32,000 bases of DNA from Ktedonobacterales bacterium (GCA_030167145.1 CP126532.1:2970001-3002000); one strand, 5' to 3'; positions 9,232 through 30,586 are shown, counted from the stretch's first letter. Notes: generated by a model not told the origin, from the letters alone. Numbers and translations are program-made.

Positions 9232-10328
9232 ACATGCGCCTCCGCGGGTTGGTCTTCCGGCTCAAGAGCCACGCTCGCGCCGCCCATCCGCAGCGATTCG
9301 TCCATCGCTTCGAGCAGTCGCACAATCTGCAAGCCATTCTGCCCATCGCTGGGTGGCCTGCTGCCGGTACGTATCGCATCGAGAAAGCGCTGGCACTCAA
9401 TAGTAAGCGGCTCGGTCCAGTGGATATGCGGGCTGACGATATCGCCATAGCGATACGACAACTGAAACTCGCCGAAGGTAGAGGTATAGTCGGGCACATC
9501 CACGCCACGGTTGAAGATCCGCACCTTCTCCGTGGCCTCCACATCGTCGTACACCGCCATTTGCTTCTCGCCCACCACCGTGATGCGCCGCACCTTCGAA
9601 GGATGCAACCAACTCACATGCACATGCGCCAGCGCGCCATTCGGATAGCGCATCATCACGTGCGCCACATCGTGGATGTTGGGCCGCACAAACGCCTCGC
9701 CCTGCACACTCACGCTCACCGGCTCCGCGTCCAGGATGTAGTTCAGTATCGAAAGATCGTGCGGCGCGAGATCCCACAGCACATTGATGTCGGGCTGGAA
9801 CAGGCCAAGATTCACCCGAATCGCATCCACGTGGTAGACCCGCCCAAATGCCTCGTCCGCCACGATGCGCCGCAGCTCTTCGACGGCGGGATTATACAGA
9901 AAGGTATGTCCCACCATCAGCGTCCGCTCCATGCGCTCCGCCAGCGCCACCAGTTTCACCGCCTCTGCCACGCTGGCGGTGAGTGGCTTCTCCACGAAGA
10001 CATGTTTGCCGCGCTCCAGCGCCTTGCGCGCCAGCGGATAGTGCGTGCGAATCGGCGTGGCGACCACGATGGCGTCTATATCGGCATCCAGCGCCAGCTC
10101 GACATCCGCGACGACATTGATATGCGGGAAGGCTTCGCTCGCGGCCTCGCGGCGCGCTGGCGCAAGGTCTACGATGTGCGTCACCGTCGTATCGCGCAGC
10201 CGGTCAAAGTTCCGTACCAGTTGCGGACCCCAATAGCCATAGCCAATCACCGCCACCCGCACGTGCGGCTGCTCGCGACCCGCGCTCCCATCCGTTGCCG
10301 TCGCGACCCCCGTAGCTCGTGGTTCCAC
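9228..10328 (-). CDS. Gfo/Idh/MocA-family NAD-dependent oxidoreductase (WbpB-like sugar 3-dehydrogenase candidate)
   Basis: ORF 9228..10400(-). Preferred start is the GTG at 10328, preceded by GGAGGAGG with a 4-nt spacer. Rossmann motif VAVIGYGYWGPQLVRNF and the EKP motif (VFVEKPLTAS). Confidence 0.85.
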   Translation of the reverse strand: MEPRATGVATATDGSAGREQPHVRVAVIGYGYWGPQLVRNFDRLRDTTVTHIVDLAPARREAASEAFPHINVVADVELALDADIDAIVVATPIRTHYPLARKALERGKHVFVEKPLTASVAEAVKLVALAERMERTLMVGHTFLYNPAVEELRRIVADEAFGRVYHVDAIRVNLGLFQPDINVLWDLAPHDLSILNYILDAEPVSVSVQGEAFVRPNIHDVAHVMMRYPNGALAHVHVSWLHPSKVRRITVVGEKQMAVYDDVEATEKVRIFNRGVDVPDYTSTFGEFQLSYRYGDIVSPHIHWTEPLTIECQRFLDAIRTGSRPPSDGQNGLQIVRLLEAMDESLRMGGASVALEPEDQPAEAHV

Positions 10329-10928
10329 GTTTCCTCCTCCACCCGCACTGTGACCCGAAGCCCTGTAGAGCAGTGGCAGCGCCTCACAAGATCTCATCAT
10401 TTCCCACTATGACACGGATACGAAAGAATGCACAGTGTTTAGGACCAATCGCCATACCGCCAGTGCGCTTTTCAACGCATCCTAACGTCTTTTTCACACA
10501 ACTCTCCGCCGATGCGCGCTCGTAGCTGTCCTGATGTCGTTCGCCATTCCTGACACCGCTATCATATGGCTCGCCATTCCTTATTAGTGGCGTTGCAATG
10601 AAGGGACGCTGTGAGTACTACCGACGACAAGTTTCTGTTCGTGGTCCGTCAACACGTGTGAGGGGTCCATGCGCCCATCGCCGCGACAAGCAATGCGGCG
10701 GTACCATCTGGCAGGTGTATTGCGCGCTTGCAACGCTTGTGCTGTACTCAGCATTGCGAAACTAGAGGCAAACGTGCGCACGCGATACGCGGTCAGGTGC
10801 ATACATCAGGCTGCATGGGGCCGTAGAGAGGCCATTGAGAGAAGGAACGCAGTGCGTCTCGGACGGTGGCGCGGCGCGCGGCGCAGCCGTCAATGTGGTT
10901 GAGGAAGCGGTTCATGTGGGGGGAAGCC

Positions 10929-11834
10929 ATGTCAGAGTATCCAATAGCCGATGTCGCGGTCCGGTCCAGTGGAATGGCGGACACATCCCCAGAGCATACA
11001 GCACAGGGGCCAGCGCGTGTGGCGGCGCGCGCTGTTCCCCCTGCCTGGAAGACCCAGATCGCCGCGACGGGGCTGCTCCCCGCGCCGCGCAACGCCTTTG
11101 CCAGGCGCACACTCGATCTCGCGCTCTCGCTCGTCGCGTTGCTCTTCACCCTGCCCCTCTACCCGATCATTGTCCTCGCCATTCGTCTCGACTCCAAGGG
11201 CCACGCCCTCTATCGCCAGACCCGCGTCGGGCGCAACGGTCAGACGTTCACCGTCTTGAAGTTCCGCTCGATGTATGTCTCCCAGCAGCCCGTGGATCCC
11301 GTCTACCGCGACATGGCAAACAAATGGATGGCGGGCGTCCCGCTCACTCCCACCGCCACCGACGCCGATGCGCCGCACGACACGGCCTCCGAGGTATCCG
11401 CAACGAACGCGCAGACTGCGTCGAACACAACGACGCCAGTGCCGTCGCCCGCGCCATCCTCGCGGGCGAAAGCCGCGCCGAAGTACAAACTCGCCAACGA
11501 CCCGCGCATCACCCATGTTGGGCGGTTTCTCCGCGCCACCAGCCTCGACGAGCTGCCCCAGTTCATCAACGTGCTGCTCGGCGACATGAGCATCGTTGGC
11601 CCGCGCCCCGCCATCCCCTTCGAGGTGGATCGCTACGCCCCGCGCGATTTTGGCCGGCTGCTCGTCAAGCCAGGCATTACCGGCCTGTGGCAGGTCGAAG
11701 GGCGCGGCCATGTCACCTTCCAGCAGATGATTGACCTCGACCTGAAATATGTCGCGCGTAACTCACTCTGGTATGATGTCGGCCTGATCCTGCGGACCGT
11801 GCCCGCCGTGTTGCGGCGCAGCGGCGCGGCCTAA
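10929..11834 (+). CDS. polyprenyl-phosphate sugar-phosphate transferase (bacterial sugar transferase, WbaP/PglC-type initiating enzyme)
   Basis: ORF 10866..11834. Preferred ATG at 10929 after GGGGGAAG. Re-entrant helix RTLDLALSLVALLFTLPLYPIIVLAIRL, then YRQTRVGRNGQTFTVLKFRSM, DPRITHVGRFLRATSLDELPQFINVLLGDMSIVGPRP and KPGITGLWQV. Confidence 0.85.
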   Translation: MSEYPIADVAVRSSGMADTSPEHTAQGPARVAARAVPPAWKTQIAATGLLPAPRNAFARRTLDLALSLVALLFTLPLYPIIVLAIRLDSKGHALYRQTRVGRNGQTFTVLKFRSMYVSQQPVDPVYRDMANKWMAGVPLTPTATDADAPHDTASEVSATNAQTASNTTTPVPSPAPSSRAKAAPKYKLANDPRITHVGRFLRATSLDELPQFINVLLGDMSIVGPRPAIPFEVDRYAPRDFGRLLVKPGITGLWQVEGRGHVTFQQMIDLDLKYVARNSLWYDVGLILRTVPAVLRRSGAA

Positions 11835-12108
11835 GTGATCCTGAAGATGTCGCGCGGGGTACTCTGGTAATCTGGTGATCGGGTGCGCTGTCCGTGCGCC
11901 TATCCGGGCCATCACCCCGCGCCTCGTAGTACTTTGGTGCGGCGGAAAATAGCGCAAGCCGTTTCAAGAGGTACTCTGCGGTAGAGACGCGCGCCGTAGC
12001 GTGCGCGCTCACTTGGCGTCTCGCATATATCGTGTATCGTGTGTACCACGTCTGCGACACTGCGGCGTTTTCCGTACCACACCCCAGCCGGAGGAGATAC
12101 GAAGGGCC

Positions 12109-13983
12109 ATGGAATTGACACGCGCGACAGGCGCTGTCTTGCGTCGCGTCTATCTCGTGATTCTCGGCGCACTGCTCATTGGCGCGCTTGCCTATTTCTG
12201 GTCCATGCGTCAGCCCACCCGCTACACCGCCAACGCGCAGGTCGTGGTGGCGCTCACGAATCTCGCATCGCCAGAGACCGCCAGCGCCGCCCGCGTCGCC
12301 AACGCCGCCTCGCTCGCCCAGCAATACATCGCCAACCCGTTGCCTTCCTCCGTGCTCGATCAGATCCACGAGGCGATTCCCGGCCGCACACCCGCGCAAA
12401 TCAAAGCCGAGGTCAGCTTCACCCTCGTCGCCGGTCAGCCCTTGATCACCATCACCGCCCTCGACCGCGACTCCGCGACCGCACAGGCGCTGGCCAACTC
12501 CGCCAGCATCGCCTTTGCCGGCTACTATTCCCAGCAAGAGTTCAACGCCCGTGCGACCATAACCCAGCAGGTCTCCGATTTACAGGCGCAATTCAAGCAG
12601 AGCGCCGCCCAGATCAAAGATCTGCAACAGGCTATCGCCGCCGCCAAAGCACAAGGCGCCGACACCACCGCCCTGCAAACCCAACTCACCGCGCTCCAGA
12701 ATCAGCAGGCATCCGTCACCAGCCAGCTCACCGCCGCCCAGGCCCAGGCCGATGCCCCGTTGCCCGTCCTCTGGCTCGCGCAGAGCGCCCGCCCAGCCGC
12801 CCAGGTCAGCGTGAATATCCCGCTGAACACCGGCTTCGGCGTCGCGGCGGGCCTGCTCGCCGGTATGGGGCTGGCGCTGCTTCTCGACCTGATGGATGGC
12901 ATCGTGCGCACCCCAATTGACACCAGCCGCTTCGCTGCCCTCACCACACTCGCCACCATGCGCGACATCCCCAGCGACGACGACGAACCGGCCTTGCTCG
13001 CCCCACAGCAATATTTCAGCGTCTTCAATTCCTATCAAGAATTGGCCCAAAGCCTGCTCTTCCTCAACGCGACACGCCGCGTCGAAACGTTGATGGTCGC
13101 CCCCGCCGATAACGTCCCCAACGACGATCTGGTGGGCATCTACCTCGCCATCACCTATGCCCTCTCTGGCGAACGCACCCTGCTCATTGACGCCAACTGG
13201 GACTCACCCTCCCTGGAAAAACGCTTCGGCCTCCCGCCTGAGACACGCGGCGGCCTCTTCACCAGCGTCCTCGCCATGACCCGCGACGCCGCGCACATCT
13301 ACGACGCCATCCAGCCCACCGAGATCCCCGGCCTCTACGTCTTGCTCGTGGGGCCGCAGCCGCCCAACCCCGACGACGTGATGCAGCCCGCCCCGGTGGA
13401 TCACTTCTTCACACGCCTCGAAAGCCAGTTCAGCCAGATCGTCGTGCTCGCCCCCGCAGGCCTGCTCAGCCCCGCCGGACGCCAACTGGCCGAGCGCATG
13501 GACGGCACACTCGTCGTCGCGCACGCTGGCTCAACCGTCGGCGGCGAGCTTGCCGGGCTGGCGCGCTCACTCCGCCGCATGAATTGCTATCTCGTTGGCG
13601 CTGCGCTCGTCGGCGATGAGGTCGCCGCCAAATCCATGCTGCCCGCGCCCAGCCAGCCCGCGCCCGCCGTGCCCATCGTGCCAGCGGCAGTCACCGGCGC
13701 GCTGAACAGCGCCCACTCGCGCACCGAACAGTGGACCGGCAGCTTTGAGGCCATCACCGGCATGTTCCCGGCGGTCAATCTGCCCGCTCAATCCGCGTCC
13801 GGCTACAGTCCCCAACCGATATCCGGCCCAGCGCCCGCGCCAGTGCCACGGCAGGCGCCCGCGCCAGTGCCACTATCAGGCCAGCCAATGCCTGGTCACA
13901 CACCCCTGTGGCCCGGCCCTGCACACAGCGAGGGGTCGCCACCGAGTACAATGGACCAGCAGACAGGCCAGTCTAGGCCGTAG
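12109..13983 (+). CDS. polysaccharide co-polymerase (Wzz/PCP-2-like) with a degenerate C-terminal BY-kinase/ParA-like domain and a Pro-rich tail
   Basis: ORF 12001..13983. Preferred ATG at 12109 after GGAGGAG. TM1 (VYLVILGALLIGALAYFW), a Q/A-rich coiled-coil region, TM2 (GFGVAAGLLAGMGLALLL), then a domain colinear with BY-kinases (TLLIDANWDSPSLEKRFGL; LLVGPQPPNPDDVM) that lacks the GK(S/T) P-loop. Confidence 0.8.
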   Translation: MELTRATGAVLRRVYLVILGALLIGALAYFWSMRQPTRYTANAQVVVALTNLASPETASAARVANAASLAQQYIANPLPSSVLDQIHEAIPGRTPAQIKAEVSFTLVAGQPLITITALDRDSATAQALANSASIAFAGYYSQQEFNARATITQQVSDLQAQFKQSAAQIKDLQQAIAAAKAQGADTTALQTQLTALQNQQASVTSQLTAAQAQADAPLPVLWLAQSARPAAQVSVNIPLNTGFGVAAGLLAGMGLALLLDLMDGIVRTPIDTSRFAALTTLATMRDIPSDDDEPALLAPQQYFSVFNSYQELAQSLLFLNATRRVETLMVAPADNVPNDDLVGIYLAITYALSGERTLLIDANWDSPSLEKRFGLPPETRGGLFTSVLAMTRDAAHIYDAIQPTEIPGLYVLLVGPQPPNPDDVMQPAPVDHFFTRLESQFSQIVVLAPAGLLSPAGRQLAERMDGTLVVAHAGSTVGGELAGLARSLRRMNCYLVGAALVGDEVAAKSMLPAPSQPAPAVPIVPAAVTGALNSAHSRTEQWTGSFEAITGMFPAVNLPAQSASGYSPQPISGPAPAPVPRQAPAPVPLSGQPMPGHTPLWPGPAHSEGSPPSTMDQQTGQSRP

Positions 13984-14092: not shown

Positions 14093-15238
14093 ATGACCAC
14101 GGTTTCGACGACGGCGACAACGCTCGCGGAGATTCCCCTCGTAGATCTCAAGGCGCAGTATGCGCCACTCAAAGACGAAATGCTCGCCGCGATTGCCAAT
14201 GTGCTCGATGGTATGCACCTCTTCTTAGGGCCAGAGCAGCGCGACTTCGAGCAAGAGTTCGCCGCATTCTGCGGCACAAGCCAGTGCATCGGCGTCAGCA
14301 ACGGCACTGATGCCATCGAATTGGCGCTGCGCGCCCTGGGCATCGGCGCGGGCGATGAAGTCATCACCCAGCCCAATTCGTTCATCGCCACCGGCGAGGC
14401 CATCAGCGCCGTCGGCGCGATTCCCATCTTCGTGGATGTCAACGAAGCTACCTCCACCCTCGATCCCACGCTCCTCGAAGCCAAGATCACCCCGCGCACC
14501 AAAGCCATCATTCCCGTGCATCTCTATGGCCGCCCAGCGGACATGCCCGCGATTCTCGCGATTGCCGAACCGCGCGGCATCCCCGTCATCGAAGATGCCA
14601 GCCAGGCGCACGGCGCGGAGATTGACGGCCAGCGCGTCGGCTCCTTCGGCACGCTCGCCACCTTCAGTTTCTACTTCTCCAAGAACCTTGGCGCCTACGG
14701 CGAGGCTGGCGCCGTCACCACCAACGACCCCGATCTCGCCGCCCGCGTGCGCCTCTATCGCGACCACGGCTCGCAGGTGCGCTACCATCACGAGGTCGTC
14801 GGCCGCAATGCGCGTATGGATGAGATACAGGCCGCGATCCTGCGCATCAAGCTGCGCCACCTGCCAGAGTGGAATGTCGCCCGGCGCGACCGCGCGGCGG
14901 TGCTCACCGCGGCGCTGGCGGGCACATCGCTCACACTCCCCGTCCCTGGTGGCGAGCATGTGCGCGAAGTCTTCTACGTCTACGCCGTGCGCCACCCAGA
15001 GCGCGACCGCCTCAAAGCCTTCCTGGGCGAGCGCGGCATCAACACCGGCATCCACTTTCCCATACCGATCCACTTGCAGCAGGCGTATGCCGACCTCGGC
15101 TACACACCGGGATCCTATCCCGTCACCGAGCGGCTCTCCAACGAGATCCTCTCGCTGCCCATGTACGCCGAACTCACCGACGAGCAGATCGCCCGCATCG
15201 CGGCGGCGGTCCGCGAATTCGACGCCGCTGGCGCCTGA
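14093..15238 (+). CDS. DegT/DnrJ/EryC1/StrS-family PLP-dependent sugar aminotransferase (WbpE-like)
   Basis: 381 aa. Motifs GDEVITQPNSFIATGEAI, IPVHLYGRPADM and DASQAHGA, plus the PLP-lysine context SFYFSKNLGAYGEAGAV. Confidence 0.9.
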   Translation: MTTVSTTATTLAEIPLVDLKAQYAPLKDEMLAAIANVLDGMHLFLGPEQRDFEQEFAAFCGTSQCIGVSNGTDAIELALRALGIGAGDEVITQPNSFIATGEAISAVGAIPIFVDVNEATSTLDPTLLEAKITPRTKAIIPVHLYGRPADMPAILAIAEPRGIPVIEDASQAHGAEIDGQRVGSFGTLATFSFYFSKNLGAYGEAGAVTTNDPDLAARVRLYRDHGSQVRYHHEVVGRNARMDEIQAAILRIKLRHLPEWNVARRDRAAVLTAALAGTSLTLPVPGGEHVREVFYVYAVRHPERDRLKAFLGERGINTGIHFPIPIHLQQAYADLGYTPGSYPVTERLSNEILSLPMYAELTDEQIARIAAAVREFDAAGA

Positions 15239-15260
15239 GCGCCACGGTAACGCCGATCCA

Positions 15261-15348
15261 GGTAGCGCAGACATTCTTGTCTGCGGTGTACGGTAGCGCA
15301 GACAGGAATGTCTGCGCGTGGTGGGGCAACGGAAACTTGCCCCACCAC
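15261..15348. repeat. cluster of three GC-rich hairpins (two GTAG-headed REP-like units plus a 12-bp stem)
   Basis: ggtag+cgcagaca-ttct-tgtctgcg (15261-15285). ggtag+cgcagaca-ggaa-tgtctgcg (15292-15317). gtggtggggcaa-cggaaac-ttgccccaccac (15318-15348, perfect 12-bp stem). Lies just after the aminotransferase stop. Confidence 0.8.
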
Positions 15349-15606
15349 GTATCCACCCAGTTTTCGCCAGCAGGTGCGGATGGATGCGGGGTAGCGGAGG
15401 TTATGTTCCCTATGGCGACACACCCCACACACGGGCCAATCATGCCTTTTGGCGCTAGCGCGACATCGCACGGCCACACGTTCGTTACACACCGTAGAAC
15501 GTCGCGACGGGATGGGGGACACTCCCGCGCGACATATAGCGCGACGTACATGGAGTCTGGGCCAGCAGTTCCCGCCGCAAGCCGCGTGGGGGCACAAGGA
15601 TAAGCG

Positions 15607-18600
15607 ATGGCGGACTACACACAGGCAAACTATCGCCAGGCAGACGTTGGCCAGGCAGACCACCGTCAGGCAAACTACCCAGGGCAACTGCTCGACGAAG
15701 CCGAGGAGATTCCCCAGTCGCAATGGGCCACCGGCGCGCTGGACGGCCTCTCGGAGCCGCAATGGTCCTCCGAACAGGTCATCACCGGCCAGTATCGCAT
15801 CCCTGGGGCCGTTGCATCGCCTTCAAGCTCGCTCACCAAAGGCGAAGCCAAAGGTAAGGTTGGCTCCGGCAGGGTCACCAGCCGCACCGCCGCGCAGCGC
15901 CTGCGCGAAACCGCCGTCAACGCCAAGATTCTCAGCGCCATCCTCACGCTGGCCAGCGGCACCATCGCCGCACGCGCCCTCGGCGTCTTCAACCAATCGG
16001 TCATCTCCGCGCACTTCGGCGCGGGCGTCGAGATGGACGCCTACTTCGCCACCCTCGCCCTGCCGGTGCTGCTCACCAATCTCGTCGTCAATGCGCTCGG
16101 CTCGGCGATTGTCCCCGTCTACGTCCGCATGACCAAAGATGGCCGGGACCGCGAGGCCTCCGAAGTGCTGAGCACGCTTCTCAACGTCGTGCTGCTCTTC
16201 GTCGCGCTGCTCACCGTGCTGACGCTGCTCTTCCCCAGAGCAGCCGTGCGAGTGATGGCCCCCGGCGCATCCGAAGCCACGATTACGGCAGGCGCGGCGC
16301 TGGCGCCCTATCTCTTCCCAATCCTGCTCTTCAGCACCATCATCGGCTTCCTCACCGGCATCGCCAATGCCACGCGCCGTTTCGGCTTCCCCGCCTTCGG
16401 CGCGATGCTCGTGCCCGTGGGCATCTTCCTCGGCACAATCCTGCTGGGCAACACCCTCGGCGTGCGTGGCCTCGCCCTCGGCCAGCTTGGCGGCATCATC
16501 CTGCAATTCCTGCTGATGCTCGTCCTCAGCCGCAAACTCAAGCTGCACTATCGCCCGTTCATCAGCTTCCGCCACGTCGAGGCCCGCACCGCGATCATGC
16601 AATTCTGGCCGATGCTGATCGGCGCGACCATCGGCCAGGCCAACTCGGTGATTGACCAGATCATCGCCTCTCTGCTCGGCTCCGGCAGCATCTCCGCGCT
16701 GAACTACGCGCTCAAAGTCATCAGCATCCCCATCACCGTCATCTTCGTCGCCTATTCACAGGCCATCTATCCCTACCTCTCCAGCCAGGCCGCCTCGCGC
16801 GACTACAAGAGCCTCAAGAGCACCATCAGCCTCTTCGCCTGGGTCATCGGCCTCGTCACCCTGGGCATGTCCATCGTCTTCACCGTCTTCTCCGGGCCGA
16901 TCATCCACATCCTCTTCACGCGCGGCGCCTTCAGCGAACAGGACGCCGCCAGCACCTCCGCCACGCTGATTGGCTTCTCCGTCGGCCTCGTGCCCATGGC
17001 CATCGAGTTCATGCTCACCCGCACCTTCAACGCCTTGCAGAAGAACGGCGTGCTGATGCGCATCGCCATCTACACCATGGTCACCAACGCCGCGCTCGAT
17101 GTGCTCATGGCTCACTTCTTCGGCTTGCCAGGCATCGCCGTGGCCACCTCGATAGATTACCTGCTCACCGCCGTGCTGATGCTTGCCGTGCTCAAGAGCA
17201 CCATCGGCCCCATCGGCATCCACCGCCCCCCGCCACAACTGCTGCGCATGCTCGCGTTCACCCCCGGCTCGGCCCGCCTGCGCCGCATGGCGCTGCGCAG
17301 CGTCAGCAAACTGGAGCCGCTCGGCCTCACCTTCGGGCGCACCGTGCGTAACTTCGCGCTGGTGCTGCTCGGCTTCGCCGCCATCGCCGCCATCACCATG
17401 AAGAACGCCGTGCAGGGGCTGCGCGTCTCCATCGGGTTCGCGCTGGCGTTCGTGTTCATTCGCTCGCCCTTTGGTCTGCTGCTCACCTGGGCAGGGCTTG
17501 GCGCATTTTACAGCGTCTACGTCCTCGACCACTCGTTGGGTTATGTGCTGGCCCTGGCCTCCATACCAGCATTCCTGCTCCTAATCCGCCGCGAGACCAT
17601 CATGAATCGCCCCTGGCCCCGCGCGCTCTATGTCTACGCGGCCTTCCTGGCATGGGTCATCCTGGGCGTTTCGCTCTCCCCGCTCTCGAAAAGCCAGTTC
17701 GCCATTGATGTGCTCGGCTACCTGGACTACGGATTTGTGTTGCTGCTCGCCGTGACCGAACTCACCACCCGCCAGCGCTTCGAGCGCTTCGTCACCGTGC
17801 TGCTCTGCTCATCCACCGTCCTCGCGCTACTCGGCGTCGCCCAATATCTGTTGCGTTTCGGCGGCTACCAGGAGCCAGGCGCCACATTGGTCTACCGCGT
17901 CGCGGGCATCTACGGCTGGTCGAATTCCTTCGGCTTCTACCTCTGCCTGGTGCTGCCCATCGCCATCTACCGCCTGCTCACCTCTCCACGCGGCCAGCGC
18001 CTGCTCTGGAGCGTCGTCCTCGCGCTGCAAATCGCCGCGCTGGCGCTCACCTTCGTGCGCACCGCCTGGCTCGCCGCCTTCGTCATGATCGCCGTCGCCG
18101 CGATTCTGCTGGACCGCAAACGGCGCAAGCCGCTGCTGGTGGGCATCGGCGCGGTGATCGTCGCAGGCGCGGCGCTCGCGCTGATCCCGCAACTTGGCGT
18201 ACAAAAACGCCTCTTGCAAAACGTGACCACCCTGAACTCGCGCACCGGCGGTTGGGATGCCCTGATCGCCAACTTCCATCCCACCGATGTGCTGGGGCAG
18301 GGTTTGTACGCCTCGAATAATCTGCTCTATCACCTGCATCCCGATGGCGTGGTCGCGCCGCATAGCCTCTATCTGCAAGTCCTCTTCGACCACGGCATCA
18401 TCGGCCTGCTGCTCCTCATCATGACCATCCTGCTGCTGATCGGCGGCGCGGTGCGCAAGGCGTGGCGCAGCCAGGGCAACGCGCGCATTCTTGCCGCGCT
18501 GGCGGCGGGCGGGCTGATCGCCGCGGCGGCATACGTTGCGGTGGATAACGAATTCTGGGTCTACGGCCTGGGCACCTACTTCTGGCTGCTCGCCGCCCTG

Positions 18601-18783
18601 CCCTACGCCCGCGTCTTCGAGTCGCCGCGCTACGCGGGCACCCCCGTGGAGGAGAGCACCGCGCCCGGCGGCCCGACAGCGCGCAATAGTAAGCGTGCAA
18701 AACAACAGAAACCAGGTAAACCGCAAAAACGTGGGAAAGCAGCGACCAGCGTGCCAACCAGCGTCCCCGCATCCCGCGTCTAA
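15607..18783 (+). CDS. fusion protein: N-terminal MurJ/MviN-type MOP flippase domain plus C-terminal O-antigen ligase/polymerase (Wzy_C-like) domain
   Basis: A single 1058-aa ORF. The ATG at 15607 follows AAGGA, and I found no internal alternative start before the first TM segment. The N-terminal half is MurJ-like (ILSAILTLASGTIAARALGVFNQSVISAHFGAGVEMDAYFATLALPVLLTNLVVNALGSAIVPVYVRM). The C-terminal half carries O-antigen ligase/polymerase signatures (LALTFVRTAWLAAFVMIAV; APHSLYLQVLFDHGIIGLLLLI). Basic K/P-rich tail. Confidence 0.8.
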   Translation: MADYTQANYRQADVGQADHRQANYPGQLLDEAEEIPQSQWATGALDGLSEPQWSSEQVITGQYRIPGAVASPSSSLTKGEAKGKVGSGRVTSRTAAQRLRETAVNAKILSAILTLASGTIAARALGVFNQSVISAHFGAGVEMDAYFATLALPVLLTNLVVNALGSAIVPVYVRMTKDGRDREASEVLSTLLNVVLLFVALLTVLTLLFPRAAVRVMAPGASEATITAGAALAPYLFPILLFSTIIGFLTGIANATRRFGFPAFGAMLVPVGIFLGTILLGNTLGVRGLALGQLGGIILQFLLMLVLSRKLKLHYRPFISFRHVEARTAIMQFWPMLIGATIGQANSVIDQIIASLLGSGSISALNYALKVISIPITVIFVAYSQAIYPYLSSQAASRDYKSLKSTISLFAWVIGLVTLGMSIVFTVFSGPIIHILFTRGAFSEQDAASTSATLIGFSVGLVPMAIEFMLTRTFNALQKNGVLMRIAIYTMVTNAALDVLMAHFFGLPGIAVATSIDYLLTAVLMLAVLKSTIGPIGIHRPPPQLLRMLAFTPGSARLRRMALRSVSKLEPLGLTFGRTVRNFALVLLGFAAIAAITMKNAVQGLRVSIGFALAFVFIRSPFGLLLTWAGLGAFYSVYVLDHSLGYVLALASIPAFLLLIRRETIMNRPWPRALYVYAAFLAWVILGVSLSPLSKSQFAIDVLGYLDYGFVLLLAVTELTTRQRFERFVTVLLCSSTVLALLGVAQYLLRFGGYQEPGATLVYRVAGIYGWSNSFGFYLCLVLPIAIYRLLTSPRGQRLLWSVVLALQIAALALTFVRTAWLAAFVMIAVAAILLDRKRRKPLLVGIGAVIVAGAALALIPQLGVQKRLLQNVTTLNSRTGGWDALIANFHPTDVLGQGLYASNNLLYHLHPDGVVAPHSLYLQVLFDHGIIGLLLLIMTILLLIGGAVRKAWRSQGNARILAALAAGGLIAAAAYVAVDNEFWVYGLGTYFWLLAALPYARVFESPRYAGTPVEESTAPGGPTARNSKRAKQQKPGKPQKRGKAATSVPTSVPASRV
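15622..15681 (+). repeat. in-frame 15-nt tandem repeat x4 inside the 5' end of the flippase-polymerase gene
   Basis: caggcaaactatcgc / caggcagacgttggc / caggcagaccaccgt / caggcaaactaccca, encoding QANYR-QADVG-QADHR-QANYP. Confidence 0.85.
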
Positions 18784-18790
18784 CATCATT

Positions 18791-18853
18791 GGGGCGTCCG
18801 CCAGACGCCCGCCCACCCGGTTCATCCGTAGGGGCGTCCGGTGGACGCCCGCC
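18791..18853. repeat. pair of REP-like GC hairpins
   Basis: ggggcgtc-cgcca-gacgcccgcc (18791-18813). gta+ggggcgtcc-ggt-ggacgcccgcc (18828-18853). Same stem, different loops. Located between the flippase-polymerase stop and the next GT start. Confidence 0.8.
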
Positions 18854-18886
18854 TGCGGTTTTGGCCGCCAGCTAGGATACAGCATC

Positions 18887-20284
18887 ATGACAACGCCAGA
18901 CAGTGAGAATCAGAGCGCGCGGCCCATGCGCGTCGTGCTCTTGACCAACCAGTTCTTGCCACGGGTCGGCGGCGCGGAAGTCCTGACCCTGCGCGAGGCG
19001 GTGGCCCTGCGCGCGATGGGGCACGAGACGCGCATCCTCACCCTCCGGCTGGATCGCGTCTGGCCCCGGACGGAAGCAATGCAAGGCGTGCCCGTGCGGC
19101 GGCTCGGCGGCCTATTCGTCGGACGCAAGCTGCGGCTCAAATTCGGCGCGCAATGGCTGGCCGAAGCGCGGCTCTGGCTTCATCTCGTCCGCACTCGCCA
19201 CACCTACGACGTCATCCACATGCGCCAGATCAGCTTCCTGGCGCGGCCCGTGGCGCTCGCCTCCCGCGTGACCGGCAAGCCCGTCATCGTGCAGATCGCC
19301 AACGCTGGCCCCGGCAGTGATTCGCCCGTACCCTCCAGCGCCGAGACCACGCTCGATGCCGGTACCGCGCTCGACCCGCATGCGCCTTATCTACGCATCC
19401 CCAAGGGTTCCTGGGGCGGTTCGGACATGGATACCCTCCGCGCCTCCCAGTGGACGGCGCGCCGCACGCTGCGTATGCTCCGCCATCGCGCCATCACCCT
19501 GCTCTCCGTCAGCAGCCGCACCACCACGTACCTGCTCGAAGACGGCCTCCGCCCCGAACAGATCGTCCTGCTGCCCACCGGCATCGAGCCGGAACAGTAC
19601 GCCCCCGCGCTCGCCCACAACGCGGAGCGCGCCGAGCACCCGCGCGCCACCCCGCCCACCGTCCTCTGTGTTGCGCGCTACCGCTACGAAAAGGGCCTCG
19701 ACTACCTGCTCCATGCCTGGCTGCTCGTGCGCCAGCGCGTGCCCGATGCCCGGCTCATCCTCGCGGGTGGTGGCCAACTACAGCAGCAGCTTGCCCACAT
19801 GATCGCCGCGCTTGGCCTGGGCGACGCGGTAGACCTCGCCGGTGTGCGCGACGACGTCAAGACCCTGCTCGGCGAAGTGGACGCCTTCGTGCTGCCCTCG
19901 CGCTACGAGGGTCTCCCCAACGCCCTGCTCGAAGCCATGGCGGCGGGCCTCCCCTGTGTCGTCACCCGCGTCAGCGGCTGCGAAGACGTCGTGCTGGACG
20001 GACAGACCGGCTTCATCGTCCCCCCCGGCCAACCTAACGCCCTGGCTGACGCCCTGGTGCGCGTGCTCACCCAGCCAGAACTCGCCCACGCGCTTGGTCG
20101 CGCGGGCCGCGACCGCGCCGTAAACCACTACGACCGCCGCGACCTCATGCGCCAGCTCACCGACCTCTATGCCCGCGTCATCGCCGCAGCGAATGGCCAG
20201 CCATCCCACATACCCAGCGCGGCGAACACCGCTACCACTGCTGAACTACCCGTGCCCGCCGCACCCGGAGGCCGCACCCGATGA
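18887..20284 (+). CDS. glycosyltransferase family 4
   Basis: ORF 18536..20284. The 5' extension runs through the hairpin repeats, so I prefer the ATG at 18887 (alternative 18926, MRVVLLTNQF). Motifs FLPRVGGAEVLTLREAVALRAMGHE and PSRYEGLPNALLEAMAAGLPCVVTRVSG (EX7E). Confidence 0.82.
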   Translation: MTTPDSENQSARPMRVVLLTNQFLPRVGGAEVLTLREAVALRAMGHETRILTLRLDRVWPRTEAMQGVPVRRLGGLFVGRKLRLKFGAQWLAEARLWLHLVRTRHTYDVIHMRQISFLARPVALASRVTGKPVIVQIANAGPGSDSPVPSSAETTLDAGTALDPHAPYLRIPKGSWGGSDMDTLRASQWTARRTLRMLRHRAITLLSVSSRTTTYLLEDGLRPEQIVLLPTGIEPEQYAPALAHNAERAEHPRATPPTVLCVARYRYEKGLDYLLHAWLLVRQRVPDARLILAGGGQLQQQLAHMIAALGLGDAVDLAGVRDDVKTLLGEVDAFVLPSRYEGLPNALLEAMAAGLPCVVTRVSGCEDVVLDGQTGFIVPPGQPNALADALVRVLTQPELAHALGRAGRDRAVNHYDRRDLMRQLTDLYARVIAAANGQPSHIPSAANTATTAELPVPAAPGGRTR

Positions 20285-20491
20285 AGCGCCCCTCCCGCCC
20301 GCACCTGACGACAACTCAGCTCACTCGTCGTCCGCACCTGACCACACGTGACCGCACCCGGCTTCGCGCCCAACCGCATCGCCAATGTATCCGCATGCTA
20401 CACTATCCACATACCCATCAACCCCACCGCGAAGGACTCGCCGCCATGCGCCATACCAGCTCAGCCACGATCATATCCGGCCACTCCATTG

Positions 20492-20567
20492 GTAGGGCAG
20501 ACATTCCTGTCTGCCCACCCGCCACATCGGCAACTCCAACCACAGTGGAGCAGACATTCCTCTCTGC
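20492..20567. repeat. REP-like hairpin plus a degenerate second copy
   Basis: gtag+ggcagaca-ttcc-tgtctgccc (20492-20516, perfect 9-bp stem). Degenerate copy gcagacattcctctctgc (20549-20567). Same cagaca/tgtctg core as at 15261-15317. Confidence 0.8.
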
Positions 20568-20577
20568 CATCACGCAA

Positions 20578-20700
20578 AAATCGGCAGAATCGGCAACTGC
20601 ATCACGCGCAATATCGCCAAATCGGCAGAATTGGCAACTGGTCTCACTGGCGAACATCGCAAAATCGGCCAGTTCGGCCACTCCGCGCATTATGCGGTTT
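20578..20700. repeat. three imperfect tandem units of ~41-42 nt built from ATCGGCA-type heptamers
   Basis: U1 20578-20618 aaatcggcagaatcggcaactgcatcacgcgcaatatcgcc. U2 20619-20660 aaatcggcagaattggcaactggtctcactggcgaacatcgc. U3 from 20661 aaaatcggccagttcggccactccgcgc... An extra half-site atcggcaact lies at 20526-20535. Confidence 0.75.
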
Positions 20701-20731
20701 TACTTTCTACGGCGGACACCGGTCTGTCCCG

Positions 20732-20793
20732 AACCCGCGCAGGCGGGTTTGGCGGCCAGCGGCCATTCAGGCGCGGTTTCAACCGCCCGCTCC
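20732..20793. repeat. two-hairpin composite intergenic repeat, copy 1
   Basis: aacccgc-gcag-gcgggtt hairpin, then tggcggccagcggcc...gcgcggtttcaaccgcccgctcc. Homologous to 25383-25467. Confidence 0.75.
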
Positions 20794-20822
20794 GCTTTGA
20801 AGGTTGAAGAAGGAGCGCGCAC

Positions 20823-22754
20823 ATGTGTGGCATAACCGGATTCGTGAACCTGGGCCTCCCCGACGCCGACGCCCAGACGCTGCTCCACCGCATGACCGAC
20901 ATCATCACCCATCGCGGCCCCGACGAAGACGGCCACTGGCTTGGCGATGGCGTGGGCCTCGGCATGCGCCGCCTCAGCATCATTGACCTCAGCGGCGGCC
21001 AGCAGCCCATCACCAACGAAGATGGCTCCGTGCTCGTCGTCTTCAACGGCGAGATCTACAACTACCGCGAGCTGCGCGCCGACCTCGAACGCGCCGGCCA
21101 TCACTTCGCCACCAACAGCGACACCGAAACCATCGTCCACGCCTACGAAGAAGACGGCCTCGACTTCCCACGGCGGCTCCACGGCATGTTTGCCATCGCC
21201 CTCTGGGACCGCAAACGCCAGCGCCTCGTCCTCGTGCGCGACCGCTTCGGCAAGAAGCCGCTCTACTACGCCCACGACGGCCAGCGTTTCATCTTCGGCT
21301 CCGAGATGAAATCGCTCCTGCTCGCCCCCAACCTGCCCCGCGACCTCGATCCCCACGCCATCGGCGAATACTTCACCTTCGGCTACATCTCTTCCCCCCG
21401 CAGCGCCCTCGCCAGCGTCGCCAAACTCCCCGCCGCGCACACCCTCACCTTCGAGCAGGGCCGCGTAGACCTGCGCCGCTACTGGTCGCTCGACTTCACT
21501 CCCCGCAGCCCCGACGACGCAGAGGCAGCCGCGCGGCGCGTCCGCGAGCTTGTCCTTGCCGCCGTCCGCAAGCGGCTGATTAGCGAAGTGCCGCTCGGCG
21601 CGTTTCTCAGCGGCGGCGTGGATTCCAGCATCGTCGTTGCCGCCATGAGCCAGGTTGGCACAGAGCGCGTCAAAACCTTCTCCATCGGCTTTGAGGAAGA
21701 GAGCCACAGCGAGCTAGAGTACGCCCGGCTCGTCGCCCAGCGCTACGACACCGACCATCACGAATTCATTGTCCGCCCCGATCTGCTCGACGTGTTGCCG
21801 CGCCTCGTCTGGACCTTCGACGAACCCTTCGCCGACGCCTCGATGGTACCCACCTATTACGTTTCCAAGATGGCCCGCCAGCATGTCACCGTGGCGCTCT
21901 CCGGCGACGGCGGCGACGAACTCTATGGCGGCTATCGCCGCTACACCCGCGCGATGGACGATATTCGCCTCGCCCGCAAGCTCGGCCCGATGCGTCCGCT
22001 CGCCTCGGTTGCGGGCGCGGTTATGCCTGAAGGCATGAAGGGCAAGAACCGTCTCAGCAGCCTCGCCAGCGACCCCGCCGAACACTACGTCGAACTGCTC
22101 TCCATCTTCCCGTCACACGTCCGTTCGCGCTTGCTCCTGCCGGAGTATCGCTTCAGCGGCGCCGACGACCCGCGACAGGTGCAGTTGCGCCACTTCGCCG
22201 ACGCCCACGATCTCGACTTCTACACCCGCATGCAGCACACCGACGTGCAGGGCTATCTCACCGAAGACATCCTCATGAAGGTGGATAAAGCCAGCATGGC
22301 CACCTCGCTGGAAGCCCGCGCCCCCCTGCTCGATCACGAATTGGCCGAATACGTCGCGTCGCTGCGCCACGAGGTCCGCAACCCCGGCGAACAAAAGAAA
22401 TACATCCTCAAGAAAGCCATGGCCGACCTGCTGCCAGAGCAAACGCTCACCCGGAGCAAAATGGGCTTCTCGCTGCCGGTGGATGGCTGGCTGCGCGGAC
22501 CGCTCCGCGACCTCGCCTGGGATACGCTCACCAGCCAGCGCGCCGCCAACCGTGGCGTGCTCGATCCCCACGAAGTACGGCGGCTACTCGACGCCCAGCG
22601 CAGCGAAGCCCGCAACAACGGCAGCCGCATCTGGGCCATGCTCTGCTTCGAGCTATGGTGCCGCGCCTACCTGGATGGCGACGGCATCGCCCAACCAGCA
22701 ACGCTGGCAACCACAGTAGGGGCGCACGGCGTGCGCCCGTCCGCGAGCGCGTAG
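20823..22754 (+). CDS. asparagine synthase (glutamine-hydrolysing) family amidotransferase, AsnB/WbpS-like
   Basis: 643 aa. N-terminal nucleophile MCGITGFVN, GATase-II region, then the PP-loop SGGVDSS. AAGGAG lies 8 nt upstream of the start. Confidence 0.9.
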   Translation: MCGITGFVNLGLPDADAQTLLHRMTDIITHRGPDEDGHWLGDGVGLGMRRLSIIDLSGGQQPITNEDGSVLVVFNGEIYNYRELRADLERAGHHFATNSDTETIVHAYEEDGLDFPRRLHGMFAIALWDRKRQRLVLVRDRFGKKPLYYAHDGQRFIFGSEMKSLLLAPNLPRDLDPHAIGEYFTFGYISSPRSALASVAKLPAAHTLTFEQGRVDLRRYWSLDFTPRSPDDAEAAARRVRELVLAAVRKRLISEVPLGAFLSGGVDSSIVVAAMSQVGTERVKTFSIGFEEESHSELEYARLVAQRYDTDHHEFIVRPDLLDVLPRLVWTFDEPFADASMVPTYYVSKMARQHVTVALSGDGGDELYGGYRRYTRAMDDIRLARKLGPMRPLASVAGAVMPEGMKGKNRLSSLASDPAEHYVELLSIFPSHVRSRLLLPEYRFSGADDPRQVQLRHFADAHDLDFYTRMQHTDVQGYLTEDILMKVDKASMATSLEARAPLLDHELAEYVASLRHEVRNPGEQKKYILKKAMADLLPEQTLTRSKMGFSLPVDGWLRGPLRDLAWDTLTSQRAANRGVLDPHEVRRLLDAQRSEARNNGSRIWAMLCFELWCRAYLDGDGIAQPATLATTVGAHGVRPSASA

Positions 22755-22782: not shown

Positions 22783-23991
22783 ATGGCGGCACAAACACCC
22801 CCGGATCAGCGGAATACCCACGCAGGCGCGGCCACGACGGCCACGGCAACCGCCCCGCTGCGCGTGCTCTACCTCATGGAAGGCTTTGAGAGCGGTGGCG
22901 CGGAACACCGTTTCGTGCGCATGGCCCGCGCCCTCGACCGCGACCGCTTCGCGCTCAGCATCGGCGCGCTCCGCCTTGGCGGGCCGCTTCAGCCCGCGAT
23001 GGAAGCCACCGGCGTGCCGCTCGTGCCGTTCACCCGCCGCAGCCGCTTTGACCTCTCGCCCGTGCTGCGCCTGCGCTCCTATCTGCGCGCCGAACACATA
23101 GACGTGGTGCATGCCATGCACTGGCTCTCCAACCTCACCGCCACTCTCGCCACCACCACGCTGCCCCATGTTGCCGTCATCGGCTCAACCGTTGGCATGG
23201 TCTACGACGCTTCACGCGGTGGGCGTGCCCGTCTCGCGCTAGACCACCAGACGTGGCGGCGCATGGACCGCATGACCGTCAATTCCGAGGCGCTGCGAAC
23301 CTACCTGCTCGGCCACGGCTTCCCCGAACGCAAACTCTCCGTCGTTCTCAATGGCGTGGATCTGCCCGACGCGGCACGCCTCCCAGCCGCCCGTGCGGAA
23401 GCGCGCGCCCGACTCAGTCTCGCCCCGGAGACGCCGCTGGTCGGCATCCTTGCCCGCCTCACCCCCGTCAAAGACCACCCAACCTTCCTGCGCGCCGCCC
23501 AGATCGTGCATCAGCGCATGCCAGCGGCCCGCTTCGCCCTCGTCGGCGACGGACCCGAACGCCCCGCCCTCGAAGCGCTGGCCCGCGATCTCGGCATCGC
23601 CGAAGCCGTCATCTTCACCGGCCACGTTGCATCCAGCGACCTCGTGCTGCCCGCCTTCGATGTCGCCGTCCTCTCCTCCCGCCACGAAGGCATGCCCAAT
23701 GCCCTCTTAGAAGCGGGAGCGTGGGGCGTGCCGCTCGTCTCCACCCCCGTCGGCGGCGCGCCAGAGATCGCCATAGACGGCCAGACCGGCCTACTGGCCC
23801 CCGTCGGCGACGCCCCCGCCCTCGCGGACCGCATCCTCACCCTGCTCAGCGACCCCGCCTCTGCCCACCGGCTAGGCGCAGCGGCCCGCGACCACATTGC
23901 CGCCCGCTTCTCCACGGCCACTATGATGCACAACTACGAATCCGTCTACACCGAAGTCGCCGCCGACCGCCGCAAAGGACATGGCTCTTGA
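22783..23991 (+). CDS. glycosyltransferase family 4
   Basis: 402 aa. Motifs LRVLYLMEGFESGGAEHRFVRMA and SSRHEGMPNALLEAGAWGVPLVSTPVGG (EX7E). AAAGGAGG lies upstream. Confidence 0.85.
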   Translation: MAAQTPPDQRNTHAGAATTATATAPLRVLYLMEGFESGGAEHRFVRMARALDRDRFALSIGALRLGGPLQPAMEATGVPLVPFTRRSRFDLSPVLRLRSYLRAEHIDVVHAMHWLSNLTATLATTTLPHVAVIGSTVGMVYDASRGGRARLALDHQTWRRMDRMTVNSEALRTYLLGHGFPERKLSVVLNGVDLPDAARLPAARAEARARLSLAPETPLVGILARLTPVKDHPTFLRAAQIVHQRMPAARFALVGDGPERPALEALARDLGIAEAVIFTGHVASSDLVLPAFDVAVLSSRHEGMPNALLEAGAWGVPLVSTPVGGAPEIAIDGQTGLLAPVGDAPALADRILTLLSDPASAHRLGAAARDHIAARFSTATMMHNYESVYTEVAADRRKGHGS

Positions 23992-25295
23992 ACATCCTGA
24001 TCTGCAATAATCGCTACTTCCCCTCATCCGGGCCAGAGCGCTATCTCTTCGGCATGACCGCGCTCCTCGAACGCCACGGCCATACCGTCGTGCCCTTCGC
24101 CGCCAACTATGCCCAGACCATAGACACGCCCTATAAACACTACTTCGTCCCGCCGCCGGTGGATGGCGACAGCATCTACTTCAAGCAATATAAAGACCGG
24201 CTCACCCTGGGCAAGCGCGTCGGTCTCGTCGCCCGCGCCACCTACTCGCGCCTCGTGCGCGAAGCCGCCGCGCGTGTCATCCGCGAGCAGCACATAGATC
24301 TGGTCTACCTGCTCAACACCGTCAACGTCCTCTCGCCTAGCATCATAGACGCCGCCCATAGCCAGCGCATTCCCGTCGCCCTGCGTCTCTCCGATTTCAA
24401 CCTGCTCTGCCCGGCCTACGCCTTCCTGCGTGACGGCAAAGTCTGCCAGGAATGCCTCGGCGGCTACCATCATGCGCTCCAGCACCGCTGCCTGCAAGGC
24501 TCGCTGGCGGTCACCGGCGCGCGTGTCTTCGCCATGTCGGTCCACAACGCCATCGGCATCTACGACAAAGTCGGCGCGTACATCGCTCCGTCCCGCTTCA
24601 TGGCCAAGCAAATGGAGCATTTCAAGCCAGCGCGCGGCAAGCTCCACCACATCCCCAGCTTTGTAGATCAATCCCTGCTTGATACTGTCTCATCATCATC
24701 AGCAGCTTCCGATGAGCCAGATACGCCAGTAGAAGCCCAGCGCCCGTACATCCTCTTCTTCGGGCGCGTCTCCCCCGATAAGGGCGTCGAAGTCCTGCTC
24801 CGCGCCTATGCCGGTCTCGCCCGCGACGTAGACCTCGTCATCGCTGGCGACAGCGGCGACGGCTACCGCCAGCGCATGGAACAGCTTGCCGCCTCGCTCG
24901 GCATCCCTGCCCCCAACCTCCGCTTCACCGGCTTCGTCAGCGGCGAACCGCTCTCGCGGCTCATCTCCGGTGCGCTCTGCGCCGTTGCCCCCTCCCTCTG
25001 GCACGACAACGCCCCCATGACCGTCTACGAAAGCCTCGCCCACGGCAAAGCCGTCATCGGCAGCGACCTCGGCGGCATCAGCGAACAGATCGCGGACGGC
25101 TGCGGGCTGCCCGTGCCACCGGGAGACGTGGAAGCCTTGCGCGCCGCCATGTGTACCCTCGTGGACGACCCCGCTCTCCGTACCCGCCTCGAAGCCGCCG
25201 CCCGCACCCGCGCCCTCACCGAGTACGCCCCCGAACGCCACTATCAGCGCGTCATCGCCATCTTCGATGCCCTGCGCACTACAAAGGGCGGCTAA
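23988..25295 (+). CDS. glycosyltransferase family 4 (with a Cys-rich CPAY...CQEC...C segment)
   Basis: ORF track frame 23253..25295. The homology-like part begins at (M)NILICNNRYFPSSGPERYLFG. Proposed TTG start at 23988 overlaps the upstream TGA (cTTGAa). C-terminal motif WHDNAPMTVYESLAHGKAVIGSDLGG. The start codon is uncertain. Confidence 0.75.
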   Translation: MNILICNNRYFPSSGPERYLFGMTALLERHGHTVVPFAANYAQTIDTPYKHYFVPPPVDGDSIYFKQYKDRLTLGKRVGLVARATYSRLVREAAARVIREQHIDLVYLLNTVNVLSPSIIDAAHSQRIPVALRLSDFNLLCPAYAFLRDGKVCQECLGGYHHALQHRCLQGSLAVTGARVFAMSVHNAIGIYDKVGAYIAPSRFMAKQMEHFKPARGKLHHIPSFVDQSLLDTVSSSSAASDEPDTPVEAQRPYILFFGRVSPDKGVEVLLRAYAGLARDVDLVIAGDSGDGYRQRMEQLAASLGIPAPNLRFTGFVSGEPLSRLISGALCAVAPSLWHDNAPMTVYESLAHGKAVIGSDLGGISEQIADGCGLPVPPGDVEALRAAMCTLVDDPALRTRLEAAARTRALTEYAPERHYQRVIAIFDALRTTKGG

Positions 25296-29437: not shown

Positions 29438-29543
29438 GGTGATCTCTCCTCGAACCTGCTGCATGCGAGTATGTCATGTGCGTGCCGCACCAGGCGTCTA
29501 CCGGCGGGCGTCCCTATGGCATCCAGCGCACATGAATACAGCG

Positions 29544-30491: not shown

Positions 30492-30550
30492 CCAACCTCC
30501 CCAAGAACCTGAGCGCATCCCGATGCGCTGCTCCTTCGCGCGCCGCGCCA

Positions 30551-30586
30551 CGCCGCCATCTGCGTAGGGGTGTACGGCGTACGCCC
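30551..30586. repeat. GTAG-headed hairpin unit, left arm of a 32-bp inverted repeat
   Basis: cgccgccatctgc+gtaggggtgtacggcgtacgccc. Bases 30551-30582 are the exact reverse complement of 31577-31608. Confidence 0.9.

Follow-up and report, generated by a model that had tools for sequence, protein, structure and literature searches.

The 32,000-nucleotide stretch of a Ktedonobacterales bacterium genome analysed here (GCA_030167145.1, CP126532.1:2970001-3002000; hereafter the window) is a polysaccharide locus, and the gene of interest lies within it on the plus strand at 15607-18783. From the sequence alone, an earlier note (hereafter the original prediction) had described this gene as a single-polypeptide fusion of a MurJ-type flippase with a Wzy or O-antigen-ligase-type domain. 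Wzx/Wzy-dependent pathways produce most bacterial O-antigens, capsules and exopolysaccharides, and besides the fusion the window encodes a priming phosphoglycosyl transferase, a polysaccharide co-polymerase (PCP), several GT4 glycosyltransferases and sugar-nucleotide enzymes. Four of these, the GFO/IDH/MocA oxidoreductase, the hexapeptide acetyltransferase, the DegT-family aminotransferase and the UDP-N-acetyl-amino-sugar 6-dehydrogenase (UGDH), would together form a set like WbpA/B/E/D that yields a 2,3-diacetamido uronic acid. No other polytopic membrane protein and no other Wzx- or Wzy-family match was present among the open reading frames (ORFs) of the 32-kb window, in keeping with the earlier remark that the locus has no separate Wzx or Wzy.

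The fused gene is a single ORF of 1058 codons with an ATG start and a stop-free translation, and ATG 15607 is the sole start candidate within its first 110 codons. Third-position GC content lies between 0.79 and 0.93 in each 150-codon window of the ORF and is 0.81-0.87 across the module junction (aa 526-676), so the claim of an uninterrupted frame stands. Profile searches upheld both domain assignments. The Pfam MurJ model PF03023 matches aa 133-530 (E 2.1e-71, 241.3 bits against a cut-off of 27.4), ending at model position 400 of 451, and the Wzy_C model PF04932 matches aa 804-938 over its full length (model positions 2-149; E 2.2e-14, 54.0 bits against a gathering threshold of 31.7). The two Wzy_C-like motifs had also been placed accurately, with nt 18040-18080 corresponding to aa 812-825 (T815, R818) and nt 18350-18420 to aa 915-938 (H919, D928, G930, G933). 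Of these residues, T815, R818, D928, G930 and G933 vary little or not at all across the family.

The same architecture is widespread among relatives, as shown by the search across genomes that the original prediction had suggested. In a protein search covering NCBI, JGI, ENA and Logan assemblies, 29 of 33 homologues carried both domains, from 96% (P0001) down to 32% identity; of the other four, two (585-590 aa) have MurJ alone, one is partial and the last matches PF03023 only. A single genome of each GTDB species was also scanned, and 36 species-level Ktedonobacteria/Chloroflexota genomes proved to encode the fusion in full length, with identities of 31-64%. Additionally, the Wzy half alone was used as query against 1.8 billion representative proteins, and the 26 closest clusters (E<1e-30) consisted of 15 fusions (two of them cut by contig ends), 8 stand-alone proteins (447-548 aa) and 3 fragments. 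The fusion architecture thus occurs in many metagenome clusters too, and the module junction is continuous across assemblies from all four sources. That a sequencing frameshift or mis-assembly has merged two adjacent genes is vanishingly improbable: the only prior reason for suspecting it is that the two proteins are usually separate, and no evidence for it was found. One continuous architecture recurs in dozens of assemblies made independently, at identities as low as 31%, which rules out the frameshift or stop near 17300-17450 that the original prediction had named as its possible undoing. Codon-position GC is even across the junction, and the split orthologues are not adjacent genes at all, since the PCP and UGDH genes stand between them in the unfused cassette L058. 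The ORF is therefore confirmed as a genuine single-polypeptide joining of a MOP-superfamily (multidrug/oligosaccharidyl-lipid/polysaccharide) flippase and a complete Wzy_C-family membrane protein.

An AlphaFold2 model of the full-length fusion, built on a 30-sequence alignment, reached a mean confidence (pLDDT) of 80.7 and a pTM of 0.69, and the Wzy half modelled alone reached 88.7 and 0.88. Three regions of the full-length model, aa 1-90, 551-573 and 1009-1058, have pLDDT below 50, indicative of disorder. The first 100 residues contain short repeats of the QA[DN] type (ADYTQANYRQADVGQADHRQANY), and this extension is genuinely encoded, as no alternative start codon exists. Split relatives mark the same boundaries as the model. 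A stand-alone flippase (P0181, 493 aa) is 53% identical over aa 103-549 of the fusion and terminates there, and the stand-alone Wzy_C protein from the same locus, L058 (497 aa), aligns to aa 619-1017, its first 78 residues corresponding to aa ~575-618. We accordingly set the module boundaries from the ends and beginnings of these split orthologues together with the disordered linker at aa 551-573. Topology was derived from the AlphaFold2 helices and loop charge counts, Kyte-Doolittle calls of transmembrane (TM) helices having been discarded as too noisy. Eight Lys and Arg residues fall within aa 539-579. On this model both modules would be N-in/C-in with the linker and tail in the cytoplasm, and the loops at aa 750-771, 816-820 and 859-920, carrying R764, R818, R868 and R879, are predicted to point outward.

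Table 1 Features of the fused gene and of its neighbours in the window (positions counted from the first letter of the window).
Feature	Position	Strand	Details
Whole fused gene	15607-18783	+	1058 aa, 26 predicted TM helices
N-terminal extension, aa 1-100	15607-15906	+	Disordered, low complexity, short QA[DN]-type repeats; probably cytoplasmic
Flippase module, aa ~101-550	15907-17256	+	12-TM MurJ-like MOP protein ending at a PPPQLLRML motif, without TM13-14
Inter-module linker, aa 551-573	17257-17325	+	Disordered, Arg-rich; predicted cytoplasmic
Wzy_C-family module, aa ~574-1009	17326-18633	+	~14 TM, predicted N-in/C-in, large outward loop aa 859-920; candidate polymerase (or ligase)
Pfam Wzy_C core, aa 804-938	18016-18420	+	PF04932; T815, R818, R868, T875, R879, W883, G930 and G933 invariant
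C-terminal tail	18634-18783	+	K/R/P-rich, disordered (pLDDT <50 at aa 1009-1058), predicted cytoplasmic; a GT4 domain follows in some relatives
DMFA2_C (N,N-dimethylformamidase beta-subunit-like) protein	4225-5853	-	Family match
GT4 glycosyltransferase	5968-7080	-	Family match
TnpB/IS605 OrfB-like gene	7348-8481	+	PF07282 Cas12f1-like TNB and PF01385; between GT4 and acetyltransferase
Hexapeptide acetyltransferase	8557-9231	-	Family match
GFO/IDH/MocA oxidoreductase	9228-10400	-	Family match
Priming phosphoglycosyl transferase (Bac_transf)	10866-11834	+	PF02397 E 1.5e-60; TIGR03025 274 bits, just under cut-off
PCP, Wzz domain and C-terminal BY-kinase-like domain	12001-13983	+	Wzz E 1e-4; TIGR01007 domain E 4e-15, under cut-off
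DegT-family sugar aminotransferase	14093-15238	+	PF01041 E 8.5e-121
GT4 directly 3' of the fusion	18536-20284	+	PF00534 E 4e-42; best NCBIfam match TIGR03088 stp2, 147 against a cut-off of 409
AsnB-like glutamine amidotransferase	20823-22754	+	PF00733 E 2.6e-102; TIGR03108 (XrtA/PEP-CTERM amidotransferase) 670 bits against 816.9; in most of 36 related loci
GT4 glycosyltransferase	22783-23991	+	Family match
GT4 glycosyltransferase	24000-25295	+	Approximate start; longest ORF 23253-25295 overlaps the preceding gene
DUF4012 protein, 824 aa	25478-27952	-	One strongly predicted TM helix, aa 144-162
UDP-N-acetyl-amino-sugar 6-dehydrogenase (UGDH)	28055-29464	-	TIGR03026 442.6 bits, above cut-off
NAD-dependent sugar epimerase	29544-30752	-	Family match; best match TviC-like

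The flippase module shows 12 helices in aa 92-533 of the model, arranged as the two six-helix lobes of the MOP fold. Foldseek matched it to MurJ (7wax, E 3e-14, TMt 0.80) and, with a comparable fit, to the 12-TM lipid III flippase WzxE (9g9p, TMt 0.79, root-mean-square deviation 4.2). By sequence, the best match in a phmmer search was to the MurJ structures (E about 1e-33 to 7e-35), and none of the Wzx Pfam families PF01943, PF13440 and PF14667 matched the window protein at E<=0.01; one relative, P0022, has a precomputed PF13440 match. What the module lacks is the C-terminal part of MurJ. Two canonical MurJ proteins (P0209 and P0225) carry two extra hydrophobic helices beyond TM12, and stand-alone members of the clade to which the fused module belongs stop 10-25 residues past TM12 (...LLKPPPQLFRLL...RGKK). 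In the fusion this position is taken by the disordered linker, and the helices that follow correspond by homology to the N-terminal part of stand-alone Wzy_C proteins. TM13-14 are described as forming a hydrophobic groove for the undecaprenyl (polyprenyl) tail and as being unique to MurJ homologues (bioRxiv 10.64898/2026.06.21.733627).

Substitutions at functional sites are suggestive only. The R18/R24/R270 cationic triad in the central cavity of E. coli MurJ is essential (PMC9973255) and corresponds to R123/N129/K370 in the window protein; across the family R123 is kept, Asn occupies the Arg24 position in at least 90% of members and Lys is invariant at the R270 position. D39 is retained as D144 and Arg52 is replaced by Thr. 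We had considered the loss of Arg24 as proof against lipid II flipping and dropped this argument, as the S. aureus MurJ triad K22/R176/K302 draws its middle charge from another helix, TM5 (bioRxiv 10.64898/2026.06.21.733627), and a residue elsewhere in the fused flippase may compensate likewise.

The question is then whether this module is the housekeeping lipid II flippase, as public annotation has it, with the Wzy_C domain acting on peptidoglycan-linked or wall-associated glycans. Some bacteria employ AsnB-type amidotransferases for peptidoglycan amidation, and the cassette contains an AsnB-like enzyme. Further points weigh against a Wzx-like role and for such a MurJ: the fused flippase passes the cut-off of the NCBIfam murJ equivalog TIGR01695 (248.3 bits against 235.55); MurJ structures are its top fold and sequence matches; neither the genome scan nor the protein searches, which were not designed for this purpose, yielded a canonical Ktedonobacteria MurJ; and the Arg24 loss is only suggestive, not decisive, with regard to lipid II flipping. 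Yet we regard this explanation as quite improbable. The module is without the MurJ-specific TM13-14 and has Asn at Arg24 in at least 90% of members, the fusion is surrounded by polysaccharide genes in all 36 loci, with no mur/fts genes among them, the split orthologues sit in sugar-nucleotide and glycosyltransferase loci, and one metagenome-assembled genome (MFD09603.bin.1.156) holds two paralogous fused flippase-Wzy_C loci (L033, L035), each with its own GT4 genes. In short, the flippase half resembles MurJ (structures from E. coli, T. africanus and S. aureus) in having it as best match by sequence and fold, in the two six-helix lobes and in the equivalents of R18 and D39 and the Lys at R270. 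It differs in the missing groove, in Arg24 and Arg52, in lying within a polysaccharide cassette and not a cell-wall cluster, and in being joined to a 14-TM enzyme. In correction of the original prediction, the half is MurJ-like by sequence only and is not a canonical lipid II MurJ; as a 12-TM MOP transporter encoded together with a phosphoglycosyl transferase, glycosyltransferases, a Wzy_C protein and a PCP, it most likely acts as a Wzx-like repeat-unit flippase. We therefore flag the public names 'murein biosynthesis integral membrane protein MurJ' and 'peptidoglycan lipid II flippase' as a systematic mis-annotation, because these proteins lack a MurJ-defining feature and are situated in polysaccharide loci.

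For the C-terminal module, the O-antigen ligase WaaL (7tpg; E 1.5e-5, TM-score 0.55-0.59) was the sole solved structure matched by Foldseek at E<=0.001, followed by the SEDS proteins FtsW and RodA. The link to WaaL is one of fold only, as searches of PDB sequences with the module, either as a single sequence or as a 30-member profile, returned nothing real. The modelled module shows the traits of the Wzy_C superfamily (Wzy, WaaL, PglL/TfpO): it passes the Pfam threshold and is predicted to be polytopic, with a large extracytoplasmic loop (aa 859-920) before the last helices, outward conserved Arg residues and a WaaL/SEDS-like fold. The residues that do not vary among fused and stand-alone members include R764, T815, R818, R868, R879, W883, G897, G899, G930 and G933. 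Unlike WaaL, the module has ~14 rather than 12 TM helices and no invariant WaaL-type His, shows no detectable sequence similarity to it even by family profile, and belongs to a host in which a lipid A-core acceptor would not be expected, since the lineage is described as Gram-stain-positive (PMC12453558).

We read this module as the pathway's putative polymerase, because the PCP is co-conserved, because it is the only Wzy_C protein in both fused and split cassettes, and because the bona fide Wzy polymerases of M. xanthus were identified through their PF04932 domain (PMC7310880). Several observations nevertheless weigh against this assignment. Fold and profile matches do not tell polymerases apart from ligases or O-oligosaccharyltransferases, the nearest structure solved so far is that of a ligase, and the best NCBIfam matches are TIGR03097, labelled 'putative O-glycosylation ligase, exosortase A system-associated' (54 bits where the cut-off is 188), and the O-oligosaccharyltransferase TfpM (27.5 against 600). 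The module could thus be a ligase of the WaaL/PglL/TfpO kind that transfers the flipped undecaprenyl-diphosphate (Und-PP) glycan to its final acceptor, which could be a protein (surface or S-layer), a lipid anchor or a wall polymer, in which case the fusion would couple flipping to ligation. The HSx9GxxG motif at H919-G933 would fit such an enzyme, H[NSQ]x9Gxx[GTY] with an invariant catalytic His being the O-antigen ligase motif. We consider a ligase unlikely but worth keeping in view. In the alignment of the fused family, the H919 position is His in 24 of 30 members and Ser in the other 6, so an essential catalytic role of H919 is unlikely; the two NCBIfam matches fall far under their cut-offs; the co-conserved PCP is a partner of Wzy polymerases; neither the window nor the split cassette L058 has another candidate for the polymerase; and no Wzy structure was among the PDB matches, so that WaaL as the best match does not discriminate. 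On balance, a candidate polymerase is the assignment that we retain for the module.

To place the fusion among its neighbours, the window genes were searched by tblastn against the 36 related loci. A core of PCP, UGDH, fusion, GT4, an optional second GT4 and AsnB is conserved in nearly all of them. UGDH lies directly upstream of the fusion in most relatives, and the GT4 directly downstream is kept in nearly all 36 loci. In the window, the longest ORF of this GT4 overlaps the tail of the fusion, and its real start is probably near 18780-18960. It is also the partner that is joined to the Wzy module in other lineages.

Relatives in which the modules are arranged differently are informative on their relationship. 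The unfused cassette L058 reads GFO, acetyltransferase, DegT, regulator, MurJ-like protein (493 aa), PCP, UGDH, Wzy_C protein (497 aa), two GT4 and two AsnB, and stand-alone flippases of the same clade occur in the sugar loci L055 and L056. At the other extreme, six proteins are MurJ-Wzy_C-GT4 triple fusions (P0012, P0016, P0018, P0029, P0032 and P0053). Wzy_C-GT4 fusions occur in L040 (11782-14145) and P0060, and they include one in an Izemoplasmatales genome, outside the Chloroflexota, where it follows MurJ. Flippase, Wzy_C and GT4 can also be three adjacent separate genes (L038); in a Solirubrobacterales genome the genes abut in the order Wzy_C, GT4, MurJ. GT4 is thus found repeatedly joined to the cytoplasmic C-terminus of the Wzy_C module, with or without the flippase. 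In a rough neighbour-joining tree, the flippase modules form a clade separate from canonical MurJ, with the split sub-clade nested among fused proteins and the triple fusions at three or more separate places, so that fusion and fission have happened repeatedly. The two modules fold independently. That they act in one pathway follows from the shared cassette of the split orthologues (L058) and from the several fusion states in which the modules recur.

The original prediction had further placed the fusion between a kinase-dead PCP and a DUF4012-like protein and suggested that the three may form an undescribed assembly machine. A PCP with a degenerate P-loop does lie two genes upstream of the fusion: at the P-loop position it reads APADNVPNDD, GK[ST], the Walker B Asp and the Tyr cluster are all missing, and the protein hence does not qualify as a bacterial tyrosine kinase PCP of the Wzc/CpsCD type. 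Its Walker A motif is equally degenerate in the three nearest relatives (L001-L003), and L004-L030 keep GEGKST. The PCP pseudokinase is thus real, but it is a feature of the window's clade that is not tied to the fusion. The DUF4012 gene was found by tblastn near none of the 36 related loci, lies 6.7 kb away on the opposite strand, and is not part of a conserved machine with the fusion. With DUF4012 not co-conserved and the state of the PCP clade-specific, the proposed three-part machine was not borne out. The DUF4012 protein carries an N-terminal ANPNANPNANQHANQ repeat.

Taken together, the gene probably encodes, naturally fused end to end, the two integral-membrane enzymes by which a member of the Ktedonobacterales (Chloroflexota) makes a heteropolysaccharide in a Wzx/Wzy-dependent manner. 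The steps of this pathway are all read from the gene content of the locus. The Bac_transf phosphoglycosyl transferase and several GT4 enzymes would assemble an Und-PP-linked repeat unit at the cytoplasmic face, with an amino-uronic acid, N-acetylated and amidated, as a probable constituent. The N-terminal module (aa ~100-550) would serve as the pathway's Wzx and flip this unit, the C-terminal module (aa ~574-1009) would polymerise the units at the outer face, where the invariant outward-loop Arg residues would bind the diphosphates, and the co-conserved PCP would set the chain length. A disordered, Arg-rich cytoplasmic linker of ~25 residues would tether the two modules, so that a flipped unit would emerge beside the polymerase. 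Physical coupling of export and polymerisation, as the original prediction had proposed, can reasonably be inferred from the fusion. The ORF, both modules with their boundaries, the conserved fusion, the common cassette and the occurrence of split and triple-fused forms are established by the analysis; the substrate, polymerase rather than ligase chemistry, and a direct hand-off between the modules are what we infer beyond this.

A more ambitious and rather doubtful extension is that the fusion, together with its triple form, is a covalently wired assembly line, in which the Und-PP unit, handed on by the last cytoplasmic glycosyltransferase, would travel via the flippase to the active site of the polymerase, never leaving the complex, and in which the Wzy helices at aa 576-640 would replace the lost TM13-14 groove at the lateral portal. 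If this were true, separate Wzx and Wzy elsewhere would form the same complex transiently, and the fusion would provide the first structural template for the long-postulated Wzx-Wzy hand-off.

The locus contains the same parts list as established Wzx/Wzy pathways such as those for P. aeruginosa B-band O-antigen, the M. xanthus polysaccharides EPS, BPS and MASC, and S. pneumoniae capsule: a priming phosphoglycosyl transferase, cytoplasmic glycosyltransferases, a 12-TM MOP flippase, a polytopic Wzy_C-family protein and a PCP with a kinase-like domain. Its sugar-nucleotide genes resemble WbpA/B/D/E together with a WbpS-like amidotransferase. It differs in that flippase and Wzy_C are one polypeptide, with GT4 added in some relatives, and in that the flippase comes from the MurJ family PF03023 instead of the usual PF01943 or PF13440; in addition, the host is a monoderm Chloroflexota bacterium, in which the outer-membrane export component OPX/Wza was not found and is not expected. 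A second comparison is with the exopolysaccharide (EPS) loci of the XrtA/PEP-CTERM type (Haft et al. 2006, PMC1569441). Their amidotransferase (TIGR03108), GT4 (TIGR03088), Wzy_C protein (TIGR03097) and PCP (TIGR03018/03007) are the best NCBIfam matches of the window proteins, although all of these matches lie below the curated cut-offs, and a flippase-polymerase fusion is not described there. No exosortase or PEP-CTERM protein was seen among the scanned ORFs of the window. The cassette is thus most similar to the XrtA-type EPS core and in operation is like an ordinary Wzx/Wzy pathway, and the fusion is not a new kind of machine.

Contact between flippase and polymerase has been debated for about two decades, chiefly on the basis of genetic specificity effects, and to our knowledge, and in the literature searched, there is no solved Wzx-Wzy complex. 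A natural Wzx-Wzy fusion was likewise not found in the searchable literature, a weak negative given that most subscription journals lie outside its coverage. An old fusion that is conserved throughout a class and has repeatedly been extended by the neighbouring glycosyltransferase is classic Rosetta-stone evidence of parts working side by side. It thereby lends sequence-level support to the proximity of Wzx and Wzy, and as a stoichiometric single-chain flippase-polymerase it could serve in cryo-EM and in assays of reconstituted flipping and polymerisation.

A few further features of the window and its relatives were recorded. The intergenic region upstream of the fusion (15239-15606) contains a pair of nearly identical palindromic units of 25 nt (15261-15285, 15292-15316) as well as a perfect stem of 13 bp (15317-15329 / 15337-15349), which look terminator-like or like repetitive extragenic palindromes; Rfam gave no match anywhere in the window, this region included. 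Downstream, a gap of ~540 bp (20285-20822) separates the GT4 from the AsnB-like gene, and the two are ~50 bp apart in L002. The only ORF in this gap, of 184 aa at 20281-20835, was rejected as a member of the cassette, being of low complexity, without a family match and absent from L002. Finally, the DMFA2_C protein recurs near related polysaccharide loci (the window, L055 and L056), and in L055 and L056 its neighbours are an ATP-grasp protein, a flavin oxidoreductase and a pair of polysaccharide deacetylases.

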